Source: a virus
Lineage: Duplodnaviria > Caudoviricetes
Direction: 5' to 3' (one strand)
Virus record (IMG/VR): IMGVR_UViG_3300046804_003910
Coordinates: 1-57,042 of that record
DNA length: 57,042 nucleotides
Made by a program: the position numbers and the translations under genes
Shown: piece after piece, positions 4,316 to 50,200 of the stretch
How positions within the stretch are numbered: the stretch's first letter is position 1
How the letters are laid out: each line of letters opens with the position of its first letter
The notes under the pieces: generated by a model
What the model was told of the DNA's origin: nothing
The model's database searches: none
What the model saw: the letters and a program-made list of their open reading frames with translations, nothing else

Positions 4316-4952
4316 TACAAATACTGATTTACCAAATGGTGTGACCACAGAAGAATTCTTACTAGTTTTAGAAAATATAACCAAAAGACTAGCTAATAAA
4401 TTCAGATTCGCATATCATACCACAGAAGATATGAAACAACAAGCAGCAATTTTTGCTCTTGAAGGATTGCAAAATTATGACAAAAAAAGGCCCCTAGAAA
4501 ACTTTCTTTGGACCCACGTTAGAAATCGACTATTTAATTACAAACGCAATAACTATCAAAGGCCCGATAAACCCTGCTTCAGTTGTCCTTTCTTTGATCA
4601 ACATTGCAAAGTTAGCATTAATCAGTGTGAGCAGTATTCTAACAAACAAGATTGTGAACTATATGCTAGTTGGTCCAAGCGCAACGAAGCCAAAAAGAAT
4701 ATTATTCAGCCAGGATATTTAGAAAATACTAATCATTTGTGTCCATCAAGCAAAGATAATTTATTAGAAAACAAAGAATTAATTAATCTATTAGATCAAT
4801 ATATTCATAGTGACTATAGAGAAATTTATCTAAAATTAAAACACGGATATAAAATTAATAAGGTTGATATGAAAAAATTAAAAAATCATATTCTTAAATT
4901 AGCGGAGGAAAACAATTGGACAGCAACATTCCAAAAAAACGAGGACAACTAA
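4293..4952 (+). CDS. Phage RNA polymerase sigma-70-like factor with a Cys-rich insert
   Basis: Region-2-like EDMKQQAAIFALEGLQNYD..RPLENFLWTHVRNRLFNYKR; insert with CxxC and three further Cys. Confidence 0.75.
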   Translation: MTKAKQNNTNTDLPNGVTTEEFLLVLENITKRLANKFRFAYHTTEDMKQQAAIFALEGLQNYDKKRPLENFLWTHVRNRLFNYKRNNYQRPDKPCFSCPFFDQHCKVSINQCEQYSNKQDCELYASWSKRNEAKKNIIQPGYLENTNHLCPSSKDNLLENKELINLLDQYIHSDYREIYLKLKHGYKINKVDMKKLKNHILKLAEENNWTATFQKNEDN

Positions 4953-5728
4953 GTCTGGACGAAGAAAAATATATTCGTGACAACTACGCCTCAACTTCTC
5001 TGCAACAAATTGCTGATCATCTTAATCGCAATATTGCTCCAATAGAGCGATATGTTAATGAAAATCAATTATCTGTTATAACCAGCAACGTTGACAACCA
5101 GATACTAAAACAGAAATTGCACACCAAAACGTTTTGGCCAGAAATTACACGACAATTTGATGTTGAAACGGGCGAACTAGAATACTTTGAAAGCACATGG
5201 ATAGGACTTATTAAGCAGTTTCGTGAGGATGTTTTACCGGCCGAAGAACTTCAAATCAAACAATTTATCACTATTGATATTCTTATTAATCGAAGCATGA
5301 AAGAAAGAAAGCGCCATATTGCCGAAACTGATAAACTTCAAAAACTAGTAGATAAAGAATATGAGAAGCCTGAGGACCAAAGAGACATACCGAAATTGGC
5401 CAATCTAGAAACTCAATTAAGTTTTGCTCGAAACAGCATCGCCAATTATACTAATGAATATACCAAACTTTTAAATGAGCAACAAAAAATTAGTAAAGAT
5501 CTTAAGGCTACTCGTGAACAGCGTATTAAAAGAATAGAAGATGGAAAAAGCAGTTGGACAGGATTAATACGAATGCTAGAAGACGAAGAAGTACGAGAAA
5601 AAGAAGGTCGCGAAATGGAAATTCTCAGTATGGCCACCAACAAGGTTAAACAAAAACTTTATGACTATCATAACTATCAGGACGGAGTTATCGATAAACC
5701 ATTCCTAAATTCAGAAAGCGTAAATTAA
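4916..5728 (+). CDS. HTH/coiled-coil protein, possible terminase small subunit
   Basis: N-terminal HTH (SLQQIADHLNRN), long coiled coil, position upstream of the large terminase. Confidence 0.5.
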   Translation: MDSNIPKKRGQLSLDEEKYIRDNYASTSLQQIADHLNRNIAPIERYVNENQLSVITSNVDNQILKQKLHTKTFWPEITRQFDVETGELEYFESTWIGLIKQFREDVLPAEELQIKQFITIDILINRSMKERKRHIAETDKLQKLVDKEYEKPEDQRDIPKLANLETQLSFARNSIANYTNEYTKLLNEQQKISKDLKATREQRIKRIEDGKSSWTGLIRMLEDEEVREKEGREMEILSMATNKVKQKLYDYHNYQDGVIDKPFLNSESVN

Positions 5729-18002: not shown

Positions 18003-19220
18003 ATGCCAAGAAATAATAATTTAGCATTTAGAAGGGGATCGTCATCAGTTTGGGCAACATCAAATTCTGTATTGGCTAGTGGGGAACCGGGGTTTGCTAT
18101 AGATACTAATATATTTAAAATTGGTGATGGAAGTAAAGAATGGAGCGAACTTCCTGCTATTAATGATAATTTAATTACCATTGTTCGCAACGATACTGGT
18201 AGTACTATAAATAAAATGAGCGTCGTTTATATTAGCGGCGCTCAAGGAGATACTCCAAGAGTAGCTTTAGCTTTGGCTAATGGCGAACCATCTAGCAGTA
18301 AAACATATGGTTTAGTAGTTAATAATATACCCACGGCCGGCACAGGAACAGTAATTGTTGATGGTACACTAAGAAACTTAGATACTAATACGCAATTTTC
18401 TGCTATTAGCGAGGGAACAGCATTATGGCTTAGTCCCACAGTGTCCGGAGGCATAACATCAACAAAACCATATGCCCCAGATCATTCAGTATTCATTGGA
18501 ACATTAATAAGAAAACATTCTCAACAAGGGGTTATTAATGTTAAAATTCAAAATGGATACGAATTAGAAGAACTTCATAATGTAGCAACAACTGGAGTAA
18601 CAAATGGACAATTCCTACAATATAATAGCATTAGTGGACTATGGGTTCCAACTAGTAGCGGAAATTTTACATCATTAAATATTAATAATACAGGCGTTAT
18701 TGTCAGTAGTGGTGGAACATCCGGATACTTAGGCAAATTTACTAATGCATCAAGTTTAAATAACAGTATTATATATCAAAACGGAACTGATGTTGGAATA
18801 GGAACAACTAATCCTGGTTATAAACTCCAAGTTAGTGGAAGTTTCGGTGCTACAACTAAAAGTTTCAGAATAGACCATCCAAATAAACCCAATTGGAGTT
18901 TAGAATATGGAAGCTTGGAAAGTCCATACCATGGAGTAAGATTAACTGGTCGCGACAAGATTGTTAAAGGAGTAGGAATAGTCATCTTACCAAATTATTT
19001 AAAAGATCTAATTCATGATGATATAAATTTAAATATTCAAATTACAAATATTAAACATAGTAAAACTATTTATATTGATAAAATAGACTTACTAAATAAT
19101 CAATTTATTGTTAAGGCTGATCGCTCTAAATCCTTGGGTGACTTACATTTTTTCTGGACCTTAACAGGAGTTCGCAAAGATGTTGAAAACCTAGTTGTTG
19201 AAAAGGAGAATGTGTTATGA
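18003..19220 (+). CDS. Fibre protein with an Mtd-N-like domain
   Basis: FRRGSSSVW...LASGEPGFAIDTNIFKIGDG; VGIGTTNP repeat; C-terminal KSFRIDHP...LESP domain. Confidence 0.75.
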   Translation: MPRNNNLAFRRGSSSVWATSNSVLASGEPGFAIDTNIFKIGDGSKEWSELPAINDNLITIVRNDTGSTINKMSVVYISGAQGDTPRVALALANGEPSSSKTYGLVVNNIPTAGTGTVIVDGTLRNLDTNTQFSAISEGTALWLSPTVSGGITSTKPYAPDHSVFIGTLIRKHSQQGVINVKIQNGYELEELHNVATTGVTNGQFLQYNSISGLWVPTSSGNFTSLNINNTGVIVSSGGTSGYLGKFTNASSLNNSIIYQNGTDVGIGTTNPGYKLQVSGSFGATTKSFRIDHPNKPNWSLEYGSLESPYHGVRLTGRDKIVKGVGIVILPNYLKDLIHDDINLNIQITNIKHSKTIYIDKIDLLNNQFIVKADRSKSLGDLHFFWTLTGVRKDVENLVVEKENVL

Positions 19221-19777
19221 GTATTATTTTTGGGCAACCTCCATACTTTGATACTAATGACCCATATTTTAATCCTATTGGAGATAGTTATCTCACAGAA
19301 AATACAGAGAATCCTACGCCAATTTCATCAGGAAAAGCAATTTTATACGGATCAACCACAGGAAATACTAGAGTTAAATTTTGTTTAAGAAGATATATAT
19401 ATAGATTTGATAGCATAACTCATACTTTTATTTACTATAAAACATATAAAGGCGTTAGAAATTTTGAACAACCAAATAATGTTACTAATATTACAGAATT
19501 AAATAATAGATCACTGATGCATTCCACGGAAATACTTAATGCTCCAGAACCTACATTTTTAACACAATCTTTATTTCAAGATCTATTTAAATATCCTAAA
19601 AATAATGATTATTTTTTTGTAGAAGGCAGTCATTATAAATTAAGGCCGGATGTTAATAATATTTATGTTCAGACAAAACCCATGTTTTATAAAATATACA
19701 GATATGGTAAAATTACAAGTAATAATGTTGTTATAGTGTATAAAAACAATAATGAAGAAAGGAGACCAAGTAATTAG
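19217..19777 (+). CDS. Hypothetical protein
   Basis: AAGGAG RBS, ATGA-coupled ORF; no recognisable motif. Confidence 0.55.
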   Translation: MSIIFGQPPYFDTNDPYFNPIGDSYLTENTENPTPISSGKAILYGSTTGNTRVKFCLRRYIYRFDSITHTFIYYKTYKGVRNFEQPNNVTNITELNNRSLMHSTEILNAPEPTFLTQSLFQDLFKYPKNNDYFFVEGSHYKLRPDVNNIYVQTKPMFYKIYRYGKITSNNVVIVYKNNNEERRPSN

Positions 19778-20002
19778 GCCCATTAGGGGTGAATTCGGTG
19801 AAACCTTAACGTGTAATGACGATGGCAATACCGAGCCAAGCATAGAACCATTTCTATGAAGGTGTAGAGACTACCTGAGACAAAATGGCTTGTCTTAATA
19901 ACAGGCACGAGCGCCCCTACCACAACTGTGGAAGATATAGTCCAAACTATAAGAAATTATAGAATTAAAGCTTAGCGTTTTAGCTAGGGGTCAAAGCTTT
20001 TG
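19764..20002 (+). ncRNA. Group I intron/ribozyme catalytic core
   Basis: P3 GGGGTG/CGCCCC; P4 TTCGGT/ACCGAG; P6a CATAGAA/TTCTATG; J6/7-P7 GTGTAGAGACTA; J8/7-P7' AAGATATAGTCC; P9 CTATAA-GAAA-TTATAG; candidate omega-G at 20002; boundaries uncertain. Confidence 0.85.
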
Positions 20003-20111
20003 CAAAATTAATATGATATAGTGTTACAAAATGAGATAGTCCATACTATAATGCTCTTAAATCCAATTTGAATTATAGTGTATTATTATAATATCACCAT
20101 GGAGCAGATAA

Positions 20112-22352
20112 ATGGCTAATATCATTATAACACCTAGTAGCGGTATAATAGACTTCTATCCGGAATCAACAAAAGTTGGCAGGATTGATGGGTCGGGAAA
20201 CTTATTTAATATTACCAATCCTTCTGGATATATCGCCCTATCTAGCAGCGGACTGAGCATTAATAAGTCCTCGCCGTTTGCTACCATCCACGCGTATTCT
20301 GCTTCGTCTGGTGCGGCATTATTAAATCTTGAAGGTACTAATGGTTCATTATTTACTGTTATTGATTCGAGTGGAGCTTTAATAAGCGCAAATAATGATG
20401 ATGGATTTCCAGTATTTGAAGTATTTAGAGATGGCAAAATAGTTGCTGGTAGAGTTGGTCAAAATGATTTTGTTCTTACTAGTGGAGGTAAAATTGGAAT
20501 CGGCACATCAACACCATCTAGCACATTACAAATTAGCGGATTAATAACCTCTAATAGTGGAAATTTTACTAACAGTTTAACAGTTAATAACAATACTGTT
20601 TGGCATAGTGGTAATTTTGATAGTAATAATATTGTCAGAACTACTGGCTCTCAAAGTATAAATGGAATTAAATCATTTGATTCTCAACCAGTTTTCAATA
20701 ATGGTATATTGGTTGGAGGATATAGTAGATTTACTATTGCTGGAACAGCGCTTGATTTCTCTATAGACAGAGGCAATCTTAATGAAGGTTTTAGTGGAGA
20801 CATCCTCAAATTTGATGTTGATGATGATAACGGTACTGGATATGCTACTACATTAAAAAGTAATGCTCCTTTACAAAATATTATAGTAAGATTACCAAAC
20901 ACTAGCGGTACGTTAGTCCTAGATAAAGTAAATATAATTGCTGGTAGTGGATTAGCAGGAGGAGGAAATCTTAGTGCTGATAGAACGTTCAATATTGGTC
21001 AGGGTGATGGTGTTACAGTAAGTGCCGACACCATAGCCATTAATAATACTGTAATTAGAACCACTGGGAATCAAACTATTAATGGAAATATAATTGCTAA
21101 TAGTGGAATGTTTAATACCATATACACTACTGGTAGCATTAGTAATGAAACTGGAAGTAGTCAATTATATCTAAATAATCCTAGTGGAAATAGAATTGAT
21201 TTTAATGGTAGTGGTATTGGGCCACCTAATTTTACCACAAATAGAAGTCTTGGTACTAAAATTATTTTATCTCCCAATATCAGTTCAACTCAAACAGAAT
21301 TTGCTCTTGGCATGGAAGCTGGAGCAATGTGGTTTTCTGTTCCTGTAGCAGCATCCAGAGCTTTTAAGTGGTATGCTGGAACAGCAAACATAGCAACATT
21401 ATTTGGAAATGGTACTCTAGATATATATGGTAGTACTAGTCAAATTAATGTTGATAGTCTTAGATTAGATAATAATGTTTTATCTGCAACAACATCTAAT
21501 AGTGATTTAATACTCAGGCCCAATGGTGATGGATCATTACTGGCTGATACAAGCGGTAATGCTAGAGGTATTTATAGTAATGATTTTCAAAGAGTAAGAA
21601 CCTCTATATCTGGCGTGGCTGCTGGAAGCTATAACGTTATATGCGGAGGATCAGATAATCGTACGGCAAATTCTTATAGTACCATTGGCGGAGGACAAAC
21701 TAATATTGCTAGTAATACACTATCTACGGTTTGTGGAGGAGACCTGAATACCGCCGGAGGTAACCGATCCACAGTATGCGGAGGTGGCAGCAATACAGCT
21801 TCGGTACAATCAGCAACGGTAGGTGGAGGATCAAACAATCAGGCCACCGGAACATATTCTACTGTGCCTGGAGGATTTAGAGCCAAGGCCACAAGACATG
21901 GAGAATTAAGTCATGCTGCTGGATTTTTTAATGCTGTTGGAGATGCTCAACATACTATTTTAGTAGCTAGAAGATTAACATCTGATGATACAGAAAGCGC
22001 TTTGACTCTAACTGGTTTAGCTCCAGATCCAGCGACTAACTTATTAATTATTCCGGCTAGAACAACATGGACTTTTACCATACAAATAAGTGCTTATAAC
22101 AATAATGATAATACAGCAGCTGGATGGAATATACGAGGTTGTATAAGACGTAATGCTAATAATGTAACAACTATGGTCGGTTCTAATATTGTCGAATCAT
22201 GGTCAGAATCAACAATGAGTAATTGCGTTGTATCGGTAATAGAAGACAATACTAATGAGGCACTACAAATTAATGTAACTGGACTAACTGGGAAAAATAT
22301 ACGATGGGTTGCTACTGTTGATATTAGTCAAGTTAGTTACGGCGCACCATAA
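20112..22352 (+). CDS. Long fibre/adhesin protein
   Basis: IGIGTSTP repeats, AGSGLAGGG motif, STVCGGxxNTA beta-roll-like repeats. Confidence 0.75.
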   Translation: MANIIITPSSGIIDFYPESTKVGRIDGSGNLFNITNPSGYIALSSSGLSINKSSPFATIHAYSASSGAALLNLEGTNGSLFTVIDSSGALISANNDDGFPVFEVFRDGKIVAGRVGQNDFVLTSGGKIGIGTSTPSSTLQISGLITSNSGNFTNSLTVNNNTVWHSGNFDSNNIVRTTGSQSINGIKSFDSQPVFNNGILVGGYSRFTIAGTALDFSIDRGNLNEGFSGDILKFDVDDDNGTGYATTLKSNAPLQNIIVRLPNTSGTLVLDKVNIIAGSGLAGGGNLSADRTFNIGQGDGVTVSADTIAINNTVIRTTGNQTINGNIIANSGMFNTIYTTGSISNETGSSQLYLNNPSGNRIDFNGSGIGPPNFTTNRSLGTKIILSPNISSTQTEFALGMEAGAMWFSVPVAASRAFKWYAGTANIATLFGNGTLDIYGSTSQINVDSLRLDNNVLSATTSNSDLILRPNGDGSLLADTSGNARGIYSNDFQRVRTSISGVAAGSYNVICGGSDNRTANSYSTIGGGQTNIASNTLSTVCGGDLNTAGGNRSTVCGGGSNTASVQSATVGGGSNNQATGTYSTVPGGFRAKATRHGELSHAAGFFNAVGDAQHTILVARRLTSDDTESALTLTGLAPDPATNLLIIPARTTWTFTIQISAYNNNDNTAAGWNIRGCIRRNANNVTTMVGSNIVESWSESTMSNCVVSVIEDNTNEALQINVTGLTGKNIRWVATVDISQVSYGAP

Positions 22353-35289: not shown

Positions 35290-38200
35290 ATGGCACAAGG
35301 ATTTAATCTTACGGCCCAGCTTAATTTAGTTGGACCAACAAATGTGAGACAAATAGCATCTCAGATCAGGAGAGATCTTGGTACTGTTGATGCAACTGTA
35401 AACTTTAAATTAGATCCGGCAGCAACAAAAAATGTTACAGCTTTAAATACGGCGCTCAAACAACTAAATACAACACTAAATGCAACTAATACATCTGCAA
35501 CTTCTGCAGCCAATGCTATAAAAAATCTGAGCAGCAGCATTAATTCTGTAAAAGCTAATAACTTGTCCAAACAACTTAATAGTGCAGCAAAAGCCACTAG
35601 CAATCTTAATAAGTCCAACAATAAGATCCAAAGCTCTATTGCTGGTGCTAGTAATGAAATGCAAGAATTCGGCAAGCAAGCTGGACTTGCTGTTAGAAGA
35701 TTTACGGCATTTGCTACTGTCACTAGTGTTATATATGGATTAACAAATAGTATTAATAGAGGAGTTCAAGCATTTATTGATTATGATAAAGAATTGGTTA
35801 GATTACAACAGGTTACAGGTCAGTCTTTAAAAGGTTTATCTTCACTACAATCTGCTATTACAAATTTAGCAACATCTCTAGGAGTAGGATCAAAAGAATT
35901 AACCACAGTTGCTGTTACTTTGGCTCAGGCTGGATTAAGCGCTAAGGATACAGAGAAATCTTTGAAGGCTTTAGCATTAAGTAGTTTAGCTCCATCATTT
36001 GACAATATGAATGAAACGGTCGAAGGTAGTATTGCTTTAATGAGACAGTTCGGAATAGGTGCTGTAGATTTGGAAAAAGCGCTAGGTTCTGTAAATGCTG
36101 TTGCTGCAAAGTTTGCTGTAGAAGCTAGTGATATTATCACAGCTATACAGCGTACCGGTGGTGTGTTTGCAACAGCCAGTAGAGGAGTCAGCGAAGGAAC
36201 AGATGCGTTAAACGAATTTATAGCAGTATTTACTAGCGTAAGAGCAACAACTCGTGAAAGTGCAGAAACTATTGCTACCGGTTTAAGAACTATTTTTACA
36301 AGAATACAACGTGGAGATACTATTGATGCACTGAAAGAATTTGGAGTTAATTTAACAGACGCTCAAGGAAAATTCGTTGGAGCATACAAAGCTGTTGAGT
36401 TATTAAGTAAAGGATTAAATTCTATAGATCCTAGAGATCTAAAATTCTCACAGATAGTTGAAGAACTTGGTGGATTTCGACAAATTGGAAAAGTTATCCC
36501 ATTAATTCAACAGTTCGCCACTGCACAACAAGCCTTAGCAGTAGCCCAACAAGGACAAGGCTCTTTAGCCGAGGACGCTGCTACAGGACAAAAAAGCTTA
36601 GCAAATCAAATATCAAAAGTTAAAGAACAATTTTTTGCCCTATTTAGAGAGATTGGTCAAAGTCAAGGATTCCAAACTTTAGCCAAAGGAGCACTTAATT
36701 TAGCAAGCGCATTAATAAAAATCCTTGATGCTACTAAATCTTTATTACCAGCATTAAGTGTGGTATTAGCTTTTAAAGGATCAAAAGCATTAACGGAATT
36801 TGTTGGTGGTTTGGGCAGAGGTTTTAGAAGAGGTCCTGATAATAAAGCTGGAGCTGGTAAAAACGAACCATTTGCTCGCGGAGGTGTTGTTAAAAAGTTT
36901 GCCAGAGGAGGTGTTGTTCCTGGTAGCGGTAATAGAGATACTGTTCCGGCAATGTTAACCCCAGGAGAGTTTGTTATACGAAAAAAGGCTGTTGAAACTA
37001 TTGGTGCTGATAATCTTCATAATATGAATAAGTATGGAACTGGCGGAAGTATAAGAAAAGGAACATCAAATAGAAGAAGAAAATTTGCCAAGGGTGGTAA
37101 AGCAGCTAAATTAGCTAGCATAGATGGTGACTTTAGGGCGGTTGATGGAGATACATTTGATGCTACGGTGACTCCAACAGGAGATCAGTTCACAGCAAGA
37201 TTTAGAGTTGCTGAATTTGATACGTATGAAGGAAGAGGAAAAGCTAGTTTAGTTTCTGCGGATAAAGCAAAAAAAATAATGTCATTAAATAAAGGTAAAC
37301 CTCCGTTAGAAGAATCTTCTGGAAGATATAAGGTTCCAAAAGACTATAAAGTAACTAAAAATGACACAGCAGCAACGGCGGCACAAGAAGCAAAAAAAGA
37401 ACTACAAAGTAAACTGGATCAATTCGTAGGACCAGAAGCAGCTAAAAAAACAGTTCCTGGCGGAGGCGGTGTTGGTAGATATTTAGCTAAAACTGGATTC
37501 TCTATGCCAGATAGTTTGACAACAGGAAGAAAATGGGATGAAAAAGGAAAAGAACTTCTTAATGTTGGAGGTGTTGTTAAAAAATTTATGGCGGGTGGAA
37601 AAGCTCCAGAAGTTGTATTCGGAACAGGACAAACAAAATTTCCCAAGCGTATAACAAATGCCTATGCTAAAGAACTACAGAAAAAACTAGATTCAGAAAG
37701 AGTAAATAATGCTTTCGATCCTTATCCGACCAATGAAAGAATAACAATCGATCCTGCAGAAGTACAACAAAAATTTCAGGGCGAACCTTTTGATCGTAAA
37801 AGATTTTTAAGCTTATTTAATACTAAAGTTAGTCGCAATGAATTAATAGGTAATCTATCTGATTTTGCTAAGTTCATAGGACTACCGGGAGAGGATTTAA
37901 GTAAAATTTTACCACAAACTATAGATTTTGGCGGAGAATTACAGCGATATGGTAATCGTGGAACATTTAGTAGAGATCCTTTTAGTACTCAAGGATATGA
38001 TACTAAGGGTCTTGAAGCTTATGGCTTTACAGCTGCTGATGAACAAGATTTATTCGGATATCAAAAATTAATAGATGAAAAAACTAAAGAAATCAAAAAA
38101 ATAATAAAAACTCCCATAGAAACATTTGAGGATGGATCATTTAGTTATGATAGTGCGGCTTTTCTTAAGGCTACGAGCGAAAAAGATGAATTAAGTAAAA

Positions 38201-41200
38201 AATTATCCGCAGTTATGGATAAAAGGGCGGTTGCTCGTAAAGCTCTTATGGAACAAAAAAAGAGTATATTAGCATCAACAGGACGCGGGTTTGTTTCATT
38301 AGCCAGTAATGCTTTTGAACGTAATCAACCAAAAAATGTATTATATCATGAATTAACACACCAACTATTTAATTCTTTACGAGCTAAATCAGAAGACAGT
38401 TTTGCCAAATATAAAGAAAGGGTATCTCAATTATTCGGTGGAGATAATGACGATTTAGCAGACGCATTTGATGCGTTGGGTGGAAGTTATAACAGCGCGG
38501 ATGTTGTTTATGGACGCTCTTATAAGAATGGTTTACTTGATACTGTTTTACAAAATTTAAGACAAGGGACTATTAACTCAGGGGGAAGAAGCGCAAATCC
38601 TGAACTATCTAAAGAAGCATACTCTATGTGGGTAGAGTCTGGACAAAAAAAGAATGCTCGCGAATATCGTCCAATAAATCCAAAAATTAATGAGATACTA
38701 TTAAAAGGCGGACAGAGACAAGACACAATAGATAAAGTAGAAGATTATGGTAAAGAAGAATTTTTAACTACACTTATTCAGAATGCTCCTAAATTAGATT
38801 CTAATATGCAAGGAATTTTAGATTCCACTTTAAATGAATTATTAGGAAATGCTGGAATACAAAGACAAACCTACGCTGGCGGCGGCAAGGTTATGAGAAA
38901 CCTAGGATATATTGATTTTGATGTAATTAATGATCCAGCTAATGCTAAAACTGTTGAAAAAGCTATGAAAGAAGCTGGTGTTGATGGACCAAGAAAATAT
39001 ACTGAATATTTAATGGATTTAGCTACTAAGGCCAGAAAAAATACTAGTATTCAAAAATTAACAGCATTATATGGTGTGGCTGGTGCTGGAAAAAGCAGTA
39101 TCGCAATGGGTCGTGGAGCAAACGATATAGGAACATTAAGACAAACTAATCGTTTTCCAATATTAACGCCAGAAGATATATCTAAAGCTTCTGAGGTTAT
39201 GCTATTGAGTAGTACTGTCTCTCAAGATAAATTAGAAGGTATGTTTAAAGAAGCTGATAAAATTTATGGATTATCAACCACAACACAAGAAGAAAAAGAT
39301 AGAGTTCGTAAACAAAGAACAATGAGAGATGTTAGTGGTATAGGTCTATTTGGCAGAGAGGCTGGTAGTACCACAGGCGCTCCAACTGATACCGCAAAAG
39401 AAGAAGCTCTTTTAATGGATAGATTTGGAGATAAAACAACTATTTTGGGACGAGGAGATTCTAATAGACTACGCAGAAAAAAAGGAAATGAATTAGTAGA
39501 AATAACAAAGAAAAAACTAGCCTTTACATGGGGAGGATTTGCTCCAACAACAGCAGGACACGAATCTATTATGGAAGCAGCAAAAGCTGCTGGTATACCT
39601 TATGAAGATTTTATAGCTTTGGTTGGAGCTAATGAAGGTATAGATGCTAAAAGCTATAGAACAGCAGTATTTGATCAAGACTTCAGATTAGCATTAGCAA
39701 AAGCGGGATTTGGATCAAAGGGTGCCTCTGTATTACCAAAAGCTTTCGGAGATATGAGTGTTCCATTAGCTTTTGACATGGGAGAGAAGGGTGGCCGTAG
39801 ACAGATTACACTAGCTGGTGAAGGAAGTATGGCTTTTGTTGCAGATAAAACAGAGCAACAAATGGAGAAATATAAAAAAGCAGGATACGGAGTTACTAAT
39901 CTAGAAAGAACGGGTGGAATTAGTGGAACCCAAGTTAGAGACCTATTACTCAATGGAGATTTAGAAGGTCTTCAGAAAATTGTTTCTCCTGGAGTATTTT
40001 CATTATTAAAAGATAATATTTCTCAATTACAAAACAGAGCTAATGTATTACCAGTATTAATAGAACAAGCAGAAGCTGCATATAAGCAAGAAGTAGCCGC
40101 TATAGACGAGCAACTAGCAGCCACAGGAATAACTCGCGCAAATAATAAAAAAGCAGAGACAGACCCAGAGTATGCCGAGCAATTAAAACTTTATCAGTCT
40201 TTAAAAGAGAAAAAGAAAAAATTAGAAACTAAAAAATCATTTGAGCCGTATCGTCTGCTTAGACAATTGGCAGACAGTGATCCTGCCAAATATGGATTAA
40301 GATTTGATACAGTTTCTTCTGCCGTTTCTGGTCCGTCTTCTGCTATGCAGCAGGCTATTCTAGAAAAGGTGGCAAAACAAACTGCTGTTAAAAAATCTTC
40401 TGGCATATTACCAGCAGAAGGAAGAGAAATCTTGAAACGATTTGGGGCCGACAGATTACCAACAGATCCTATGTTTGGTCCGTTCGCAGGAAAAACAGTA
40501 CGAGATACGGCTGAAGGTGGAAAATTAAAATATTGGAATTCCGCTTTTAGGCCAGAGACAAAAGCAGATAAGCTAGCCTATTATACTGCAACAAGAGACT
40601 ACTTAATAGATAAATTTAACGAATCTCAAGGTTCTCAAAGAGCAACAGCATTAAAAGATACTACAAATGCTGTTTTATCATCAGCACAATTAGGTCTAGT
40701 AGGATTAAATCCACTAGGATACACCGGATTATTAGGTCCAGAAACTTGGAATCTTGGTACAGACCCATCCGGCCAAGAAAGATCAATAGACGCCTCCATA
40801 GTTCAAAGAGGATTACCAAGACAGTATCAAAATGTTATTGATTACCTGAGCGGAGAAACAGAGCAACTAGTCGGCGGGGCTGCTAAATTGCTTGGTATTA
40901 ATCCTAAAAAATTAACTCAAAAACAAAGAGAAACATTAGGTCAAGGTAATATAGAAGGAGCATTATTAGAACAAATTTTTGGATCAGCAGATGCTACCAT
41001 ACTAGATGACGCTTTAAGAACTCGTCCAATAGATTTTCCAAGTGGTATCGGTCCTAAAGCAGCATCAATATTTGGCATTGATCCTGATATTCCAACAGAA
41101 GTTAAAAGAACAATAGATAGCGGTAGTAGGGCTAAGGCTGTTGAAGAATTTCAAAGATATTTTAGACAACAATATGGTATTCCTGATCCAGACAAACAAA

Positions 41201-44200
41201 AAGTTCAAGCCTTAGCTGACGGAGGAGCTGTTAAATTATATCACGGATCCAATACTGGAATAGATGATAATGTTTTAAAGAACTTTAAAGAAAAAGGAGC
41301 ACTGAGCAATATTGCTACAGGATATGGCCAAGGGGCCGGATTCTATTTATATACAGAGAAGAATAAAGCTGAACAACAAGCAAAAATGAGAGTTAATGGT
41401 GGAAGTGGTTTTACCCTTGCTAGCGGCGACAGATCAGGAAAGCCAATGGTCCTTAGTTTTAATGAAGTATTAGATCCTAAAACTTTTGATCTTGATTATG
41501 AATTACAAAAAAAATTAGTAGTACAATGGATTCATGATAATTATGATCTTTTAAAAGATAAATATGCTCCTTCAGAAACTCAAACAGGATTAAAAGATAA
41601 ATTTGATAAAAATCCAGATGCTGGAATGATGTCTGTTGGTATACGAGTTCAAGAAGGATCTCAAACCTTAAAGTCTGAAGATGGAGCAGAGTTTGAGGTA
41701 AAAGGAGGAGCTAGAAAATCTATCTATGCTGGGAGCGAAGGAGATGTTAGAGAAGGAGCTTTGCTTGGACAGCTTATGTCCAGAATACAAGCCGGTGATC
41801 CTGATCTAGTACAACAGTTTGAGAGTGGTTTATTTAAACATCCTCTAGGATTAGCACTAAAATATGTTGGATCAACGCCACTTAAGCCAACCAACATAGA
41901 AACTTTTGCAACAGGAGGGCGAGCAGGAATATCTCCAAAAGATACAGTTCCCGCTCTTTTAACTCCTGGCGAATTTGTTATAAATAAACAAGCAGCACAA
42001 AAAATTGGTTACGGTAAATTAAATCAATTAAATAAAGCAGATAAAGTTAAAGGATATAATAAAGGAGGAGCTGTAGGAGCTGTACAAAGATTAGCATTGG
42101 GGGGATCTGTCGATCCAAATTCAATTATTAGACAACTTGGCGATTGGATAATGGCAACATCCAAAGAGAACCAAATAACAAAATTTGATACTAGACCATC
42201 AAATATTAGCAGATCAACCACGGCCACCTCCAAAGACGTTAATGAGGATTTAGAATCGATTGTTAAAAGTCTTAATGATTTAGGTTATAGTGCCGCGGAA
42301 TCTGCTACATTAATTAAAAAACTTAGAAATACTAGTGAGATTAGTTACAAAGAATTAGAAAAAGCTTTATCTAAAGATATTGCTAATCTAAAAGCCTTAG
42401 GTGCTGGTTTTGATACTATTATTCAAGCTGAAACGGCTCTAGCTAAGATTCGCGAAAAAGGACAATCTCAAGTTGATTTAAAGAAAAATTTAGAAGGAGC
42501 ATTTGGTCAAAGAGGTAATGTATCAGATAAATTATTAGGAGGAAAACTAAATATCGGAGACATCGGAGGAGGTTCCGCAGCGGCACAAACAGCCATAGAA
42601 AGACAAGCAGAATATCTTATAAAGCAACGAACATCTAGTTTAAAATCTGCCGGAAAAGAAGTAGACTTGGCTAAGATAACAGAACAAGCATATGTAAAAG
42701 CGACTTCTAAAGTATCTGGAATAGATAGTAAAGCATTTAAGAGTTATGGAATAAGTGGCAAAGATATTAAAAATTATATAGATGAATCAAAGAAAAATGC
42801 AAAAACTCTTCAAGAATTAGATCAAGCATTATTATCTCAAAAATTAGCAGAATTAAGAAACTCAGCAGCATACTCTGCCGCATCAAGATCAGAAAAAGCA
42901 AGGCTTGAAAAAGATCTAAGAGCAGAAACAAGAAGAGAAATTTCTGTTCGACGATCATTAATTAACGATCTAGCAAAAAGAACAGGATCAAAAGGCGTTG
43001 GCGCTACAGACATGATGGACTTCAATAATAGTCCTATTCTTAAAGCATTAAAATCTATCACATTGCCAGGGGCACTGATGGGAGCTTCTACTGCTGCTGG
43101 ATTAATAGGAGGACAAGGAGCCCTAATAGGCAAAGCAATGTATGGAGCAAAAGATGATGCATCACAACTACAGGCGGCCAAAACAGCCGTAGCTGTAGAA
43201 AATGCAGGAGTAACTATAAGTACAGGATTAGCGACAGCCGCACAAATTATACAAACTGTTCCTGGCAAAGCTGGATTAATAGCAGCAGCAGTTGTTGCAA
43301 TAGGTAGCGCTATTTATGCCGCCGCTGATTGGTTTGGTGATTTTAGCGGAAAGCAACAAGAAGCAGCTATACAAAAACAAAAAGAGTTAATGGCCACCCG
43401 AACAGAGGCCGCTCAAAGAAATCTTGATTTGGCATCTACTAATCTGGATAGAGATCCAAATAATATTGGATTTATTAACGCTTTCACTGATGCGCTAAAT
43501 AATATTAACACTATCAATGCAACAAATGCAGTCATAGATGTTAAGACTGCTGAATTAGACTTTAAGATGAATGCTCCAGTAGATGAAAAAGCATTATGGG
43601 CAGGGTCAGAAAATGTAGACATGGGATTCTTAGGACTAAACAAATTAGGAGATACACTAGGAAGATGGGCTTCTCAATTCTTGCCAGAATGGACAGGCAT
43701 GGGTGCTCCAAAACAAAAATTTGGTGCTCCAGAAATGGCAAAAGTTAGTGCTCAAATAGCTTCGCAGAATCAAGGAGCTGCTAATAAAGCATTACAAACA
43801 GTAACTCAGGCGATGATGGAACAAAATGTTGGGCGAGAATCTATTCTAACAGGAGAGAAATATCAGTCTCAAAGAACAGCTGTTATGATGGGTGATTTAG
43901 ATGGCGTTAAAATGTTTAATGCTATGTTGGTAGAAGCAAAAAACAGAGCAGGAGGAAGGGAACTTAGCGAAGAGGAAGTAATAGCTGTACAAAAAAGAGC
44001 AACAGAAGAATACATTAAAAATGGAAGTGCTGTTCTAGAATCAACTATAAAAAGTGCTGAAGTTGCTAAAGCTATGGAAGAAGCAGATAGGGCTGGTAGG
44101 AAATTAGCTACAAGCTTAAATAAAATGATTGATGCTATAGATCAATCTATTAATAGAATTCAAGCAGAATCTCAGGAACGAGCAAAAGCCAGTAAGCAGA

Positions 44201-47200
44201 TGATCAAAGCAATAGGAGGAGAAGGAGGTCCAGCATCGTATACTAATCGCGCTCGCTCTATTATAGATAATCCTATGGCATATAGTGAAGATGAGTATAA
44301 AGGAGCAATGAAGCAAGTTGGTGATATGGTAGGAGGAGAACAAGGCAGAAATCTTACAGGATTAGTTGGCATCGGCGCAAATATGTCAGATGCTATGTAC
44401 GCTGGTATTGTTAACAAATTAGGGGGCAAAGCTAGCACAAGCAAAGAAGAAGCAGCGAAAGAAGCCATAGCCACAGGAACAGAATACATTAATAATTTGG
44501 ATGTTAGTGATGATGTTAAAAAAGTTTTAATAGAAAAACTAACAGCAAATGTTAATCAAATTGCTGAAAAAATGGGAGAGGCATCATTTGCTAATAATCC
44601 ACAACAAGCTGTTGATCAATTTGCTGCTGCTGTTAGAGATAGTTCTTCTGCGCTTGGAGATAATTTAGAGTCTAAGGCAAAAGAAACAGCAAAAGCACTA
44701 TTAGCTCTAAAAGATAATGCATTAAATGAGTTTGCTCAAGGATTACAAGAAAGCTCAGAATATCTCAGGCAAGCTGCAAGACTTCGTATTAAAGCAGATA
44801 AAATAGCTTATGATGCTAATAATGATCTTAGAGAGATAACAACAGGAGTTGGAGAAAGCTATGGCGAAGCGAAAGGTCAATTAATGAAAGAGGTTGGCTC
44901 TCTGACCGGAGGAGCTACTGATCCGGCTGCAATTGGTAAAATGATCGAGGATGAGGCAGGAAAAAATAGAGCTTTGAACCAAAAATTACAAGATGCTCAA
45001 AATTCAGGAGATGTTGACGCTGCTTCTAAGTTAATAAGAGAAATTCAAGAGAGTAATGATAAATTATATAACTACAATGACGCTCTAGACAAATTAGCAG
45101 ATAGTACAGAACTTTACCAAAAAGCTCTTGATGAAGCTAGAAATATTGCTGGACTACAAGATCAACGTAAAGGATTTATTGAAAAACTATTAACTAATAC
45201 CCCTGAAGAAGCCGACAAGCTAAATCAATCATTTATAAGATTACAAAGAAATTTATCAGGAGGATTTAATAATCCTCAAAATCAAAGAGACGCTCGTAAA
45301 GCATTTAATGAAACATATTTTAAAACAGGAAATGTAAGGGAGGCTGCTAGAGCAGGAAATACTGTCCTAGCTAATCAACGTAAAGAAACACTAGCTCTGC
45401 AACAAGATCCTGGTTTTAGAGCTATGAGAGAATTGAATTTAAGAAACCAAGGCGCTTCTGAAGCTGATATAAAGGCTATGTTTGCCAAAGAAGAAGCAAA
45501 TTTAATGAGGCAAATGGCGGTAGAGAGCGGTTATGCTAATAATCCTGCTATTATGCAAGCTATAAACTCTATTGAAAATCGTAATGTCGATCCTGCATTC
45601 CAAAAAGCATCTCAACAGGTACTAGAAGCTGCAGGATTACGCAAAGCAGCCACAGAAGAACAAGCTCGCGTTAAAGAAACCCAAGCTTTGATTGCTAATG
45701 AAACCGCTACTATAAATCTAACAAATGCAGTTAATAATTTAAGCATTGTCATGCAAGATGCTTTTGCTAGAAATATGAGGGTGGAAGGCGGAAGGATTCC
45801 TGGACCAGCAGGAGGAAAAGTTCCTTTAAATCTGGGAGTTGGAGCGCCTGCTGCTCCTAAATCTAAGGGTGGATTAATTTATGCTGCTGATGGTACATAT
45901 GTTAACTTTGAGCCAAAAGGAACAGATACAATACCAGCAATGTTGTCTAAGGGAGAATATGTTGTTAACGCCAAGTCTACTAAAAAGAATCTTTCTCTTT
46001 TAGAGGCTATTAATGGTGGCAAAGTTAATGGCATGAGTAAAGGAGGAATCGTTTATTTATCAACGGGTGGGGAACCAGTAAAACCGGCATCTCCAAAATT
46101 CAAACCAGACAAAGGACCTAGAAAACCAAATGAAGTTGAAGCAGATACTGTTCCACTATTAGTTATTAAAAATAGAGACTATCCAGGATCTTTGACTCCG
46201 GAAGAGCAAGCAAGAGTAAATAGCTATGTCGGATTTACAAACTTTACATCAAATATGCCAGGACAAGTATGGTATGTAGATCCTAAAACAGGACAACATC
46301 GTGTCAAAGATGCTCCAAAGTCTAGAGATTTATATGGATGGGATTTTCATGATGCGTCTGACCCAGCATGGATCAAGAAGAAAGAAACATTATTTAAACA
46401 AGCAGAAGCCCGAGCAGAGTCACAATTAACGCAATTAACTCTACAAAGAGGATTCATGGGTAAGGGTAGTGGTCCCAACAAAGGCAATAATAGACTCGTA
46501 ACACCAGCAGCAGAACCTCTGAGTAGAATGAGTAATATTATTCCTCAAGAAGACCTCAATAAAATGGCAAGTATTCAAAGAGGAATTAATGACGGAACTT
46601 ATCAACCAACAGTCAAAGATCAAGATTTCTTGGACAGCATGGAGGCCAAAGTTAAAGAACAAATAACTCCTTTTAATACTATGGCTGGTGACTATGGTCA
46701 GACAATGAATTATATTACTGATTTAAGATTAAAAGTAAGCGATATCAGTATTAAAGCGGGCAAAGATGAAAATTCAAAAATTGTTCCTATTAACCTAACA
46801 GATCCTCGTTTAGATTTTGCTAGAGAACGTATTCGTAAATTAAAAGAAGAAGGAAGAGAAAAAGAGATTCCAGCATATATTGATGGCCTAAAGAAAAAAA
46901 TGGGCTATGGAAGAGATATAAATGCTCCATCTAGCGAGATTGATCCTAAATTTAAAGGAGCAAATTCATATTCCGCTTCTTGGAGACAAAATAGATCAGT
47001 ATTATTTGGAAAAGCAGACTACGAGTGGTTGGACAGGGTAAAAGAAGGAGATCCAGAAGCAACAGCTAAGTTTTTAGATCCTCAGAACAATGCTACTGCA
47101 AACATAGGCCCTGCACCAACAGCACCCAAAGTGAGTGATTTTAAAGGGTCTGGTGGAGCGGATGCATATAGAGAGGCTCAAACAAAATATAAAGCAGACT

Positions 47201-50200
47201 TGGCAAGATGGGAAAGTGGGAAAGCTGCTGTTGATAGTAGATCAGGAACTAATAAACCAGGAACAATGAAATATAGCGAAGAAGAATTACAGGCCATGAG
47301 AGAATATTTAAAGTATCATGGCGGTCCATTAACCGAGCATTATCCAAGTAACTATGATACTTATCGCCTAAATAATGATCCATCGGTCTTAGGCAGAAGA
47401 TTATATCTTATGAGTCGCATGACGAGCGGTGGAATGACAGTTAGTGAAAGAAAAGAATGGGAATTATTACGATATAATAATCCAGAAGGTATCAGAAAAT
47501 GGAGAAAAGATATTGAAGAATGGAGACAAACTCCGCAAGCAAAAGCTCTTGATCCAAGAAGTGGAGCAGGAAAAAAATACCCATACTCTATTCCAGATGA
47601 AAGTCAGGCGCAAAAAGAATCTAGACAAAGACAACTAGAAAATAGAGATAGAGCAACAACTAATGGAAACAAATTTACTATCGAAGGCGGTAGATCAACT
47701 CAAAATTCTGCTCCTTTGGTTCTGCCAGAGCCAAAAGAAGGATTTCCTATAACTTTACCGAATATTCCAGAAAATAAAGCACAACAAGAGCAGCCAGAAG
47801 TTAAAACAAATACCGGCATTGTACCTAGTGTTATACCACAAAAACCATTTAGTGGTAAAGTTTGGAGATTAACTACCGTTGGAAATAATGGAGAAATTAC
47901 TACTAGAAATTATAGATCAAAAGAAGCATACTTAAACGCAAAGAAAAAACAAGCAGAAGCCAAGGCCAACGGTGGATTAATATATGCTTCATTAGGTCAG
48001 CACATTGATTTTGCTCCAAAAGGCACGGACACTATTCCTGCTATGTTAACTCCTGGTGAGTTTGTTGTTAATGCTAGGGCAACCAAGGAGAACTTGCCAT
48101 TATTGCATGCTATTAACGATGGCAAAACTAATGGGATGAGTAAAGGAGGAATTGTTTATCTCGCAACAGGAGGAGATCCGTCAAAACCACAAGGACCAAA
48201 ACCACCAGCCACTAAGACAAAATCAAAAGCTCCTACAAAGGCAGATGTACAAAAATTAGAAAGAGCCCGAACAGATGCTCAACAAACATCATGGATGATG
48301 AGTGAGGCTGCTGGAGTAGCACCAGATGAGGTTGTAAATAGATCAGCCGCTAGTTGGACAGAATCACAAGTCGGTTATGGTAAATGGCAAACTATGAGCG
48401 AGCAGCAAAGACAAGAAGAAATAGATAAAAATAAACCAGTATTTCAAAGGAAGTGGGACTCATACAATGCAAGACAAAATGCTGCAATGGAGCAGTCGGC
48501 TAGAGAAGCAGGGTATGAAAATGCTAAAAATGATCCTAATGCTGGTATAGTTGGAGCTAATTTTTTCAATACTGAAAAAACAAGATCAATGACCGAGTTT
48601 GATAAGGCTCAAGCGGATTATGAGAAGGCAAGAGATGCTGCGATAGCCGCACAAGAGCCTATGCCAAATTCTTCTGCTCCTCCAATGATAGGACAATCGG
48701 CCTACCCTAATCAAGCTGCTCGCGACCAAGCAGTACAACAAAAAGCAGAAGAACTGGCTAGAAAAGAAGGAATTACTCATCCTCCAGTAACAACAGGAGA
48801 AGATGGAGAAACTGTAATTGGTGCTGTGCCAAGGTTTGAAGCTTTACCACCTTTACAAAAGGCTTTTATTGCATTACATAAAGATAACGCTAGAAAATCT
48901 AATACTGAAACCAGTGTAACACAAGGAAAAGCAGAAATAGAACATGATATTCAGACAATGAGATCGTATGTTGGTGCTGTCGATGATAAAGGCAATCCTT
49001 TAGTAAAACCAGAGGACGCTGCTAAAGTTAATGCAATATTAGATAAATATGATCCGAACAATCCAACAGCTTATGCTGAAGAGTTAGATCAAGCTTTACA
49101 AAATAATGAACCAGGATCCAGCGGAAGAACATTTAATGATATTCGAACCAAGGCATTAGAGAGAAATTTAGACACTACATATCAAGAAGCTGTTCAGTCT
49201 AAAATACCAGTAGCAGAACAACATATAGCAGGAGATGCTAAAGCAGAAGCAGAAGCACAAAGATTAATGCCTGGACAAACAATGGCCCCAACGACGAAAG
49301 GCGGGAATAATCCAACAACATGGTTATATGAGCCGGCTGGAACTATGAAACCAGTAGATCTAGATCCTAAAACCAAAAAGGCGGCAGAAGAAGCTGCTAA
49401 TACTGTTTTTGCCCAAGCGGAATATGGAGCATCTGGACAACTAAAAGCCAGAACAGACGCTCTGGCAAAAGTAAATAGTCCAGATTTTGATAAACTACCT
49501 AAAGACGAACAAGAAAAAATTCGAAAAGATGCTATAGCAAATCCACCATCGGAGGTAACAAGGGCAGTAGAAAAAGAAATAAAAGAGAATATGGTAAGAG
49601 AATACTCGCAAAAAGAGTACGATAAAGCACGAGCTGCTGGTAAAAGCGAAGAAGAAGCAAATAAGGCAAGAGCAAAAGTAGAGAGAGATTTACAACAAAA
49701 TAATACCGCAACATATTCTGGTTTTGATAGCGAATATAAACTTAGAACACAACCTAGTCATGTATACAAACCAGGAACAGTTGGAGAACAATATAAAAAA
49801 ACCTATGATAATATTTTAAAAAGACAAGTAGATGAAGCTCAACAACAGGTCGCAACTATGGCAGCTCAAGGGGAGAATGCCACCTTTGAATTCCAAGGAC
49901 AACAAATTCCTGTACAAAACTTGTCAACAAAAAACTCAATGGGTCGTGATACTAGTGGAGGAGCATCTAATGCTCGTTTAAGACTAGATAGATATAACAC
50001 ATTAACACAAACTCAAGCAAATTTGGATGCTACTATTAATAAGGCCAGGAGAGATGCTGCTGACGCGGAAAGAGAAATTGGATCACGAACAATCGGCGAA
50101 AAAGTTGGCGAATCACTAGTTGGATTGGGTTCTGAATTACAAGGAAACTTTACTTATCAAAGCGGGGCTGAAAAAGCTAAAGCTAAAGCAGATGCGGCAT

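Follow-up and report, generated by a model that had tools for sequence, protein, structure and literature searches.

The stretch of DNA analysed here, referred to as the window, is the whole of the Caudoviricetes record IMGVR_UViG_3300046804_003910 (positions 1 to 57,042), a 57-kb viral contig with an estimated completeness of 38%, and the element in question is a free-standing RNA with a group I ribozyme core that lies on the plus strand between two genes, from G19777 to about position 20000. All gene-like open reading frames (ORFs) of at least 90 amino acids are on the plus strand, and the ribozyme lies inside a long module of co-oriented structural genes, with two Mtd_N-type fibre genes upstream and a BppL_N-containing gene downstream. 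Both genes flanking it are complete. ORF186 (19217-19777, +) ends in the stop codon TAG at 19775-19777, whose last base is at the same time the first base of the element, and ORF746 (20112-22352, +), a tail-fibre or baseplate-like gene (match to BppL_N), has its own GGAG 7 nucleotides (nt) before the ATG. Between the element and ORF746 is a spacer (20001-20111, +) that is unconserved in relatives and is outside the ribozyme.

A sequence-only reading of the window had proposed a free-standing group I ribozyme at 19736-20002 that has a full P3-P9 core, lies between two apparently complete ORFs and contains no homing endonuclease, and these points held up. Comparison with group I models in Infernal gave a match to RF00028 (group I catalytic intron) at 19722-19963 (+) with 56.3 bits and an E value of 1.6e-13 in a small-region Rfam scan, in comparison to a gathering score of 50 bits, and a search of the window's own record placed RF00028 at the same site. 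The ORF list contains no endonuclease-size ORF inside the element. No other RNA family was found across the site in the Rfam scans, and no riboswitch family matched within 19500-20300 at E <= 10, the upstream sequence being coding. The conserved RNA itself spans G19777 to about 20000 and does not start at 19736. A cmscan of the whole window with default filters and gathering thresholds returned no match, which reflects loss by the filter and not absence of the core; Rfam scans of whole loci likewise missed it, and scans of 3 kb or less recovered an above-threshold score. Genome-wide Rfam annotation may under-report this group I subfamily.

The helices P3, P4, P5, P6/P6a, P7, P7.1, P7.2, P8 and P9 were all found, on the plus strand. 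The 5' strand of P3 (19784-19789) pairs with its 3' strand (19914-19919), with compensatory change in 4 of the 7 pairs of this helix. The P4-P6 domain (19794-19863), placed by RF00028 alignment and covariation, is made up of P4 (about 19794-19800 with 19829-19835), P5/P5a (19804-19825), P6 (19835-19837 with 19861-19863) and P6a (19841-19847 with 19852-19858), the last showing compensatory change in 6 of 7 pairs. P7 is the guanosine site of ordinary group I introns; its 5' strand in the window, GACUA (19869-19873), pairs with 19938-19942, matches the RF00028 consensus and was unchanged in 11 of 11 sequences, part of that strand having served as a search pattern. Located between P7 and the 3' strand of P3 are P7.1 (19874-19877 with 19902-19905; compensatory change in 2 of 4 pairs) and P7.2 (19878-19883 with 19890-19895; 3 of 6 pairs). 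After P8 (19920-19923 with 19928-19931), J8/7 and the 3' strand of P7 (19932-19942) read GAAGAUAUAGUCC, the same as the RF00028 consensus. Both GAAGAUAUAGUCC and AGACUA fit that consensus at high posterior probability, and J8/7-P7 keeps the catalytic consensus although it was selected by no search pattern. The P9 hairpin (19947-19962), capped by a GAAA loop, shows compensatory change in 5 of 7 pairs.

In a comparison of 11 members, standard pairs made up 95.3% of the 611 cells, in comparison to 78.1% for shuffles (0 of 500 reached the observed value) and 36-45% when partners were slid, and both sides had changed in 28 of 56 pairs (24 of 45 by the RNAalifold count). The ribozyme is 82-84% identical between phages, while their ORF186 homologues are 61-72% identical in DNA and 41-60% in protein. 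Close variants were found in contigs of four other freshwater or marine metagenome runs, with 4 differences in 19777-20000 (19927, 19978, 19981 and 19982), no deletion joint, and many differences in ORF186. Because of this covariation, the better conservation of the RNA than of ORF186 and the lack of a deletion joint, the comparison indicates that the ribozyme is a selected structure and not a decaying relic.

The upstream side of the element is occupied by ORF186. Nineteen homologues of 183-205 amino acids in the protein collection align with it end to end, including the C-terminus, whose conserved end reads ...VYKNN-N(E/I)ERR...; since the homologues align to the last residues, 19727-19777 is coding sequence. 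The sequence-only reading had placed an internal guide in a purine tract (19754-19764) just before a small GTAA-capped P2. The results showed that the tract encodes the conserved ...N(E/I)ERR... C-terminus and is not conserved as RNA, and that the supposed P2 is absent from relatives and is coding sequence as well. The proposal of an own promoter, based on a late-promoter-like AGTGTAT, found no backing either, as sigma-70-like sites numbered 7 against 8.0 expected and TATAGTGTW occurs three times in 57 kb, all within 19732-20082, a count of at least three being reached by 34 of 100 shuffles. The three copies (19732-19740, 20017-20025 and 20074-20082) cluster around the element. The same reading had noticed neither a 5' exon or P1 with a U-G pair nor a splice that restores a meaningful ORF, and in both respects it was borne out. 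No NGGU guide match was found within 600 nt upstream in the window, nor was an upstream guide partner found within 600 nt in L041 and L101 or at a conserved place elsewhere; the 'P1/P2' that the RF00028 model aligns at 19726-19775 is of low posterior probability and lacks a U.G pair. Enumeration of U...G splices extended ORF186 by at least 25 amino acids only onto the first codons of ORF746, which is artificial. A splice of the Clostridioides difficile type that joins a Shine-Dalgarno sequence to the downstream gene was rejected, as pairing between the guide and the GGAGG-like codons upstream is not conserved and a GGAG already precedes ORF746. Judging from its lack of an upstream P1 and of an interrupted gene, the element would not be a group I intron in the strict sense.

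Relatives were collected in several ways. Searches of viral and metagenome contigs with the ORF186 protein found loci independently of the RNA, and the ribozyme directly follows the ORF186 homologue in all seven of these loci that have downstream sequence (L026, L027, L028, L030, L031, L032 and L033), which comprise four distinct versions with different downstream genes. Further members came from exact-word searches with core motifs (a 17- or 21-base pattern); permuted and ordinary forms were sorted by eye among 69 distinct stretches around the 17-base word (6 without recognisable P7) and 160 further cores, and L058/L071/L075 and L100 (ambiguous) as well as L043 (cut at its 3' end) were omitted from the counts. 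All 18 loci with upstream sequence have an ORF on the same strand whose end is -1 to 31 nt ahead of the first strand of the element. Among 17 such ORFs, 12 match an ORF186-family profile at E <= 1e-4, a further one has a weak match, and those of immuto, L098, L087 and L074 gave no match to this profile. The ORF186 family is also found within proteins of 300-400 amino acids ending in ...GGNTALE, and the ribozyme follows both forms. Flavobacterium phage immuto, identified by a BLAST match, carries a homologue of the ribozyme that scores 76.9 bits against RF00028. The sequence-only reading had also pointed to a comparison with intron-less relatives; no intron-less allele was found among the loci compared, where L002 shares just the 3' half of ORF746, and 80 loci around relatives of the gene downstream in L085 are too distant to compare, the core being present in only one of them (L112).

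The first strand of the conserved RNA is GGCCC (19777-19781, +), a guide-like strand that corresponds to the 3' strand of a P1-type helix and is joined to P3 by 2-3 unpaired bases (19782-19784). Conservation on the upstream side ends exactly at GGCCC, and the preceding bases differ in every lineage. Past P9 the RNA continues as a domain of 44 to about 100 nt which always ends in a G-rich 5-mer, in the window the substrate-like strand GGGUC (19988-19992, +), where U19991 pairs with G19778, and the base directly after the 5-mer is A in 19 of 19 members (GGGUC-A, 19988-19993, in the window). In 20 members (the 19 and L306), pair 1 between the guide and substrate strands was G-C in 13, U-A in 5, C-G in 1 and G/G in 1; pair 2 was G.U in all 20; pair 3 was C-G in 17, U-A in 2 (immuto and L098) and G-C in 1 (L306); pair 4 was C-G in all 20; and pair 5 was C-G in 18, U-A in 1 and U/U in 1, so that three of the five pairs covary. 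The number of standard cells was 98 of 100, in comparison to 85.5 +/- 2.2 when the 3' strands were dealt randomly, and 0 of 5000 shuffles reached 98. RNAalifold, unprompted, predicts three of the five pairs (CCC with GGG). The counts for this helix and for the outer stem described below were made by script, since the 3' domain gives no column-by-column alignment. A constant wobble G.U between covarying pairs is the P1 signature of the group I 5' splice site, the U being the reactive base, and by this signature the pairing of the two ends is to be read as a P1 helix with its strands in swapped order.

The 3' domain in the window (19967-20000, +) is A/U-rich and consists of an outer stem (19967-19973 with 19994-20000), an inner hairpin (19974-19986) and the unpaired substrate strand between them. 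An outer stem of 5-9 base pairs (bp), starting 1-5 nt after the substrate strand, could be drawn by search in 15 of 19 members and by eye in the other 4; its sequences all differ among members, and it encloses the inner hairpin and the U strand. When the domain is folded by itself, an enclosing helix is part of the minimum-energy structure in 14 of 19 members. Such modelling suggests that a three-way junction of outer stem, inner hairpin and U strand is likely, if not established. The long inner regions of this domain in L085, L107 and L101 have the motif UUUAUUGAAAG and a G+C-rich hairpin in common.

The ordinary group I order is U strand, loop, guide strand, P2 where present, and P3. This order was found in L103, located in a tape-measure-like gene, which reads GGGU, a 9-10 nt loop, GGCCC, P2 and P3, and L108 is similar. 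The order in the 20 members of the window family is the same throughout, with the guide first, then the core and then the U strand, and from this arrangement the family is recognised as a circular permutation opened in the P1 loop, the guide still being before P3 and the U strand being behind P9. In L057 and L064/L096 there is nothing guide-like before P3, and P9 is followed by GGGUA, a 3-4 nt loop and UGCCC; the next strand of 16-23 nt is paired to the stretch adjoining P3 on its 5' side, and its sequence differs between both loci. These elements (L057, about 4810-5290 of the reversed locus, and L064 and L096, which hold the same element) are again just after a stop codon, and their layout identifies them as a second natural permutation in which the same parts are opened in P2. 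The U strand always retains its guide partner wherever it is located, which we take as the strongest internal argument that the P1-type helix matters. Ordinary introns of the same subfamily are numerous in phage genes, among them those for transfer RNA (tRNA) and ribonucleotide reductase. Very small group I introns were seen in a ribonucleotide-reductase-like gene (L046, L056, L060, L066, L072, L083, L088, L091, L097, L311, L358 and L366; exon 2 reads GALM...HPD), with the 5' splice site just about 6 nt before P3 and no guide strand or P2 between, and with a 7-bp helix between exon 1 (AAUGCGC) and exon 2 (GCGCAUU) that covaries through synonymous changes.

To explain these results, we propose that the element is a natural permuted group I ribozyme, which processes the messenger RNA (mRNA) that contains it by cutting between U19991 and C19992, and that it is not an intron; we put the chance of this reading being right at even. 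The same ribozyme may ligate a small circle as well. Its transcription would be part of that of the long structural operon on the same strand, in which it comes immediately behind the stop codon of ORF186, and guanosine or guanosine triphosphate (GTP) bound in P7 would attack the bond 3' of U19991, the bond and the nucleophile being predicted from established group I chemistry. The transcript would thereby be split into an upstream RNA, made up of the ORF186 message and the folded ribozyme and ending in U-OH, and a downstream RNA that begins with the added G followed by C19992, with a triphosphate if GTP is used. In an optional second step, not needed for the cut, an internal G would attack back and close the stretch from P9 to U19991 as a small circle, a step to which nothing specific in the sequences points. 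In a late operon, the cut would probably serve to separate cistrons or set RNA ends independently of the host. A ribosome terminating at the stop codon, which adjoins the guide strand, would cover P1 and P3, so that folding or cutting may also be tied to the translation of ORF186.

The next gene begins 2 to more than 300 nt past the predicted cut, and it varies between relatives. An ATG is found 2-12 nt past the cut in L045, L085, L101, L104 and L107 (and by eye in L084); in L045, L084, L085 and L107 the 3' strand of the outer stem is made up of this ATG or the first codons, and the outer stem is just before the ATG in L101 and L104. In members with a start codon this near, the cut may unmask a nearly leaderless message. 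In its widest form the proposal is of a phage family of non-intron permuted group I ribozymes, in at least two permutations (opened in either the P1 loop or P2), fixed 3' of one structural-gene family, that would cut late polycistronic RNA at a defined U, add guanosine (possibly as triphosphate) to the downstream piece and perhaps release a tiny circle, and in some of which a cut 2-12 nt before a start codon buried in the outer stem would switch on translation; we judge this combination of features to be somewhat short of an even chance.

Several observations weigh against this reading. Most members were fetched by an exact core word, a choice that makes conservation of this word circular and passes over diverged members. 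P3 and the base that follows the inner hairpin were the anchors from which the guide and substrate 5-mers were positioned by eye, and a loose automatic search gives some 5-bp match with a stem in 88 of 110 cores, for which reason the significance of the P1-type helix rests on its fixed position and covariation and not on pairing alone. The shuffle control for this helix ignores relatedness, both 5-mers being identical in 13 of 20 members. Single outer stems are not beyond chance, with 11 to 318 of 500 shuffled tails reaching their length, and at least four of the five bases of the substrate strand are unpaired in just 5 of 19 minimum-energy folds of the isolated 3' domain. In immuto and L098 (the latter by eye) an intrinsic terminator follows the element within about 10 nt, and a cut there would seem to strip only a terminator hairpin, without clear benefit. 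Finally, neither an invariant internal G nor a P10-type pairing was found for the second step.

The last point bears more directly on the possibility that the element is a permuted intron which back-splices, both steps taking place and a small circle from P9 to U19991 being the product. Engineered permuted intron-exon (PIE) constructs likewise have guide, core and 5'-splice-site strand in this order, and back-splicing would parallel natural permuted group II introns; P9 ends in G in the 19 members read by eye, every 5' strand of the outer stem has a G in its last 4 bases that release of the 3' fragment could free, and the long inner regions of L085, L107 and L101 have the motif mentioned above in common. 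We nevertheless hold back-splicing to be fairly unlikely, as no G at a fixed position is invariant except the paired closing G of P9, the candidate 3'-splice-site bases G19962 and G19970, read by eye, are neither of them invariant and unpaired, and no P10-type pairing of the bases after the candidate Gs with the bases 5' of the guide is conserved in the window, L026, L032 and L033. The would-be circle would also be very small in the window (about 21-29 nt, in comparison to up to about 100 nt in relatives). A catalytically silent structured RNA, in which what was once an intron core persists as a folded element in a 3'-untranslated or intergenic region, for example as an exonuclease block, a brake on translational coupling or a recombination patch between tail-gene cassettes, and in which the pairing of the ends is a closing pseudoknot, would agree with the constant position 3' of one gene family and the varying gene downstream, with the better conservation of the element than of its flanks, and with its location just before a terminator in immuto-type phages. 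This explanation is disfavoured because a structural pseudoknot should allow G-C or A-U at pair 2, yet G.U is present in 20 of 20 while its neighbours covary, and the catalytic consensus of J8/7-P7, outside the search patterns, is retained as well; we consider it unlikely.

That the element is a relic of an ordinary intron, or a functionless selfish insertion, that has lost P1/P2 and exons, as the sequence-only reading had allowed, is in our opinion quite improbable. The lack of an interrupted gene and of an endonuclease gene, as well as the many ordinary introns that this subfamily has in phage tRNA, reductase and other genes, would fit a relic, but every variable helix shows compensatory changes among hosts whose flanking protein is 41-60% identical, the position after distant members of one gene family is the same, and the variants from the four metagenome runs combine 4 differences in 19777-20000 with many in ORF186 and no deletion. 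Very improbable in our view is a trans-acting ribozyme with its own promoter and an exposed guide for cutting or splicing other phage or host RNAs; the guide strand is at the extreme 5' edge of the conserved RNA, as this would need, but the promoter signal is not above chance, its motif is not recurrent, the purine guide is coding sequence, and the partner that covaries with the real guide is in cis. Of the earlier proposal, the free-standing ribozyme that interrupts no gene and the RNA-processing or circularising role, still the best reading, can be kept, and the action in trans through the purine guide is to be dropped. A conventional cis-splicing intron whose exons were overlooked is hardly credible: it could draw on the weak 'P1/P2' that the covariance model aligns at 19726-19775, but that stretch encodes the conserved end of a protein, there is no upstream guide partner, no splice restores or lengthens an ORF, and the stop codon abutting the guide strand leaves no room for a 5' splice site after the end of ORF186.

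In comparison to known systems, the element is most similar to phage group I introns with P7.1/P7.2 (RF00028), which we take to resemble the T4 td type; it has their core helices, J8/7-P7 consensus, GAAA-capped P9 and GGGU/GCCC P1 with U.G, and differs from them in having no interrupted gene, exons, P2 or endonuclease gene and in carrying the U strand after P9. Small self-cleaving ribozymes (hammerhead, twister, those like that of hepatitis delta virus, and others) in phage intergenic regions share with our proposal the presumed host-independent cutting of polycistronic RNA, whereas the element in the window is a group I core of about 220 nt that would add guanosine to the downstream product in place of the cyclic phosphate and 5'-OH ends left by the small ribozymes. 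In the group I ribozyme of Clostridioides difficile that is under the control of a cyclic di-GMP riboswitch, the aptamer is directly upstream, whereas the sequence upstream in the window is coding and has no riboswitch match. The lariat-capping ribozyme (GIR1) of the twin-ribozyme introns of myxomycetes and Naegleria has a group I-derived core without an ordinary P1, makes a single cut upstream of a gene, and pairs its own 5' end with sequence near the cut site; it is located inside another intron, before a homing-endonuclease gene in eukaryotic ribosomal DNA, and forms a 3-nt lariat. The window element likewise has a group I core without an ordinary P1 and a predicted single cut, but it has no enclosing intron or endonuclease gene, it has an ordinary group I score and the G.U signature of P1, and just 1-2 nt separate its inner hairpin from the paired strand. 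To our knowledge, bacterial and phage group I ribozymes are known as introns, the sole natural non-intron descendant being the eukaryotic lariat-capping ribozyme, and in the open full-text literature, which excludes subscription journals and supplements, no report was found of a phage or bacterial group I ribozyme that is naturally permuted or free-standing.

Permuted arrangements themselves have precedents. Engineered PIE constructs, which make circular RNA, also have the 3' part of the ribozyme, a short insert and then the 5' splice site, and PMC8637638 mentions, besides lariat-capping ribozymes, a back-spliced giant group I intron in mushroom-coral mitochondria with the same order of parts as the window element. 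In its proposed mode of action the element would resemble a PIE construct or a group I endonuclease that carries out the first step alone, in cis. The element differs from both in that its break is in the P1 loop (in P2 in L057/L064), that it is natural and in phage late operons, and that its insert contains no gene. The natural permuted group II introns described in 2021 are, as presented in the same article (PMC8637638), also members of a large self-splicing class that are permuted and free-standing and interrupt no ORF; they are active in vitro, and they differ in ribozyme class and chemistry from the ribozyme predicted in the window. If the proposal is true, the element would be the group I counterpart of these introns, a phage route to set mRNA ends without host enzymes, and a source of natural scaffolds with which to circularise RNA or to guanylylate 5' ends site-specifically. 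The proposal makes a narrow prediction of one bond and one wobble pair, and the cultured phage immuto carries a member.

With regard to the neighbouring sequences, ORF186 has no family match in Pfam or PHROG, and its AlphaFold2 model (predicted local distance difference test, 79) has no fold match in PDB at E <= 0.001. The family is characterised by the motifs GQPPYFD, LRRY.Y.Y, YYKTYKGVRN and RYGKI (window 19217-19777, homologues P0001-P0019, and L085 995-2173). A fusion of p405 across GGGU at 19137-19140 was ruled out, since relatives without ORF186 retain p405 residues beyond this point. The resemblance of the spacer before ORF746 to 19717-19761 was not significant, with 87 and 42 of 300 shuffles reaching the local-alignment score, and by the same counts the repeats TATAGTGT and a P7-P9 look-alike at 20034-20052 did not go beyond shuffles; the spacer look-alike and the TATAGTGTW copies may be chance or old recombination scars. 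In immuto, the annotated 'hypothetical protein' immuto26A_226 (L044 1533-1667, corresponding to MW353175 145086-145220) lies wholly within the ribozyme and is probably not a gene. Further downstream in the window, 35290-52095 (+) is one ORF of 5601 amino acids, and an ORF of 1188 amino acids with a fibronectin type III domain comes after it.

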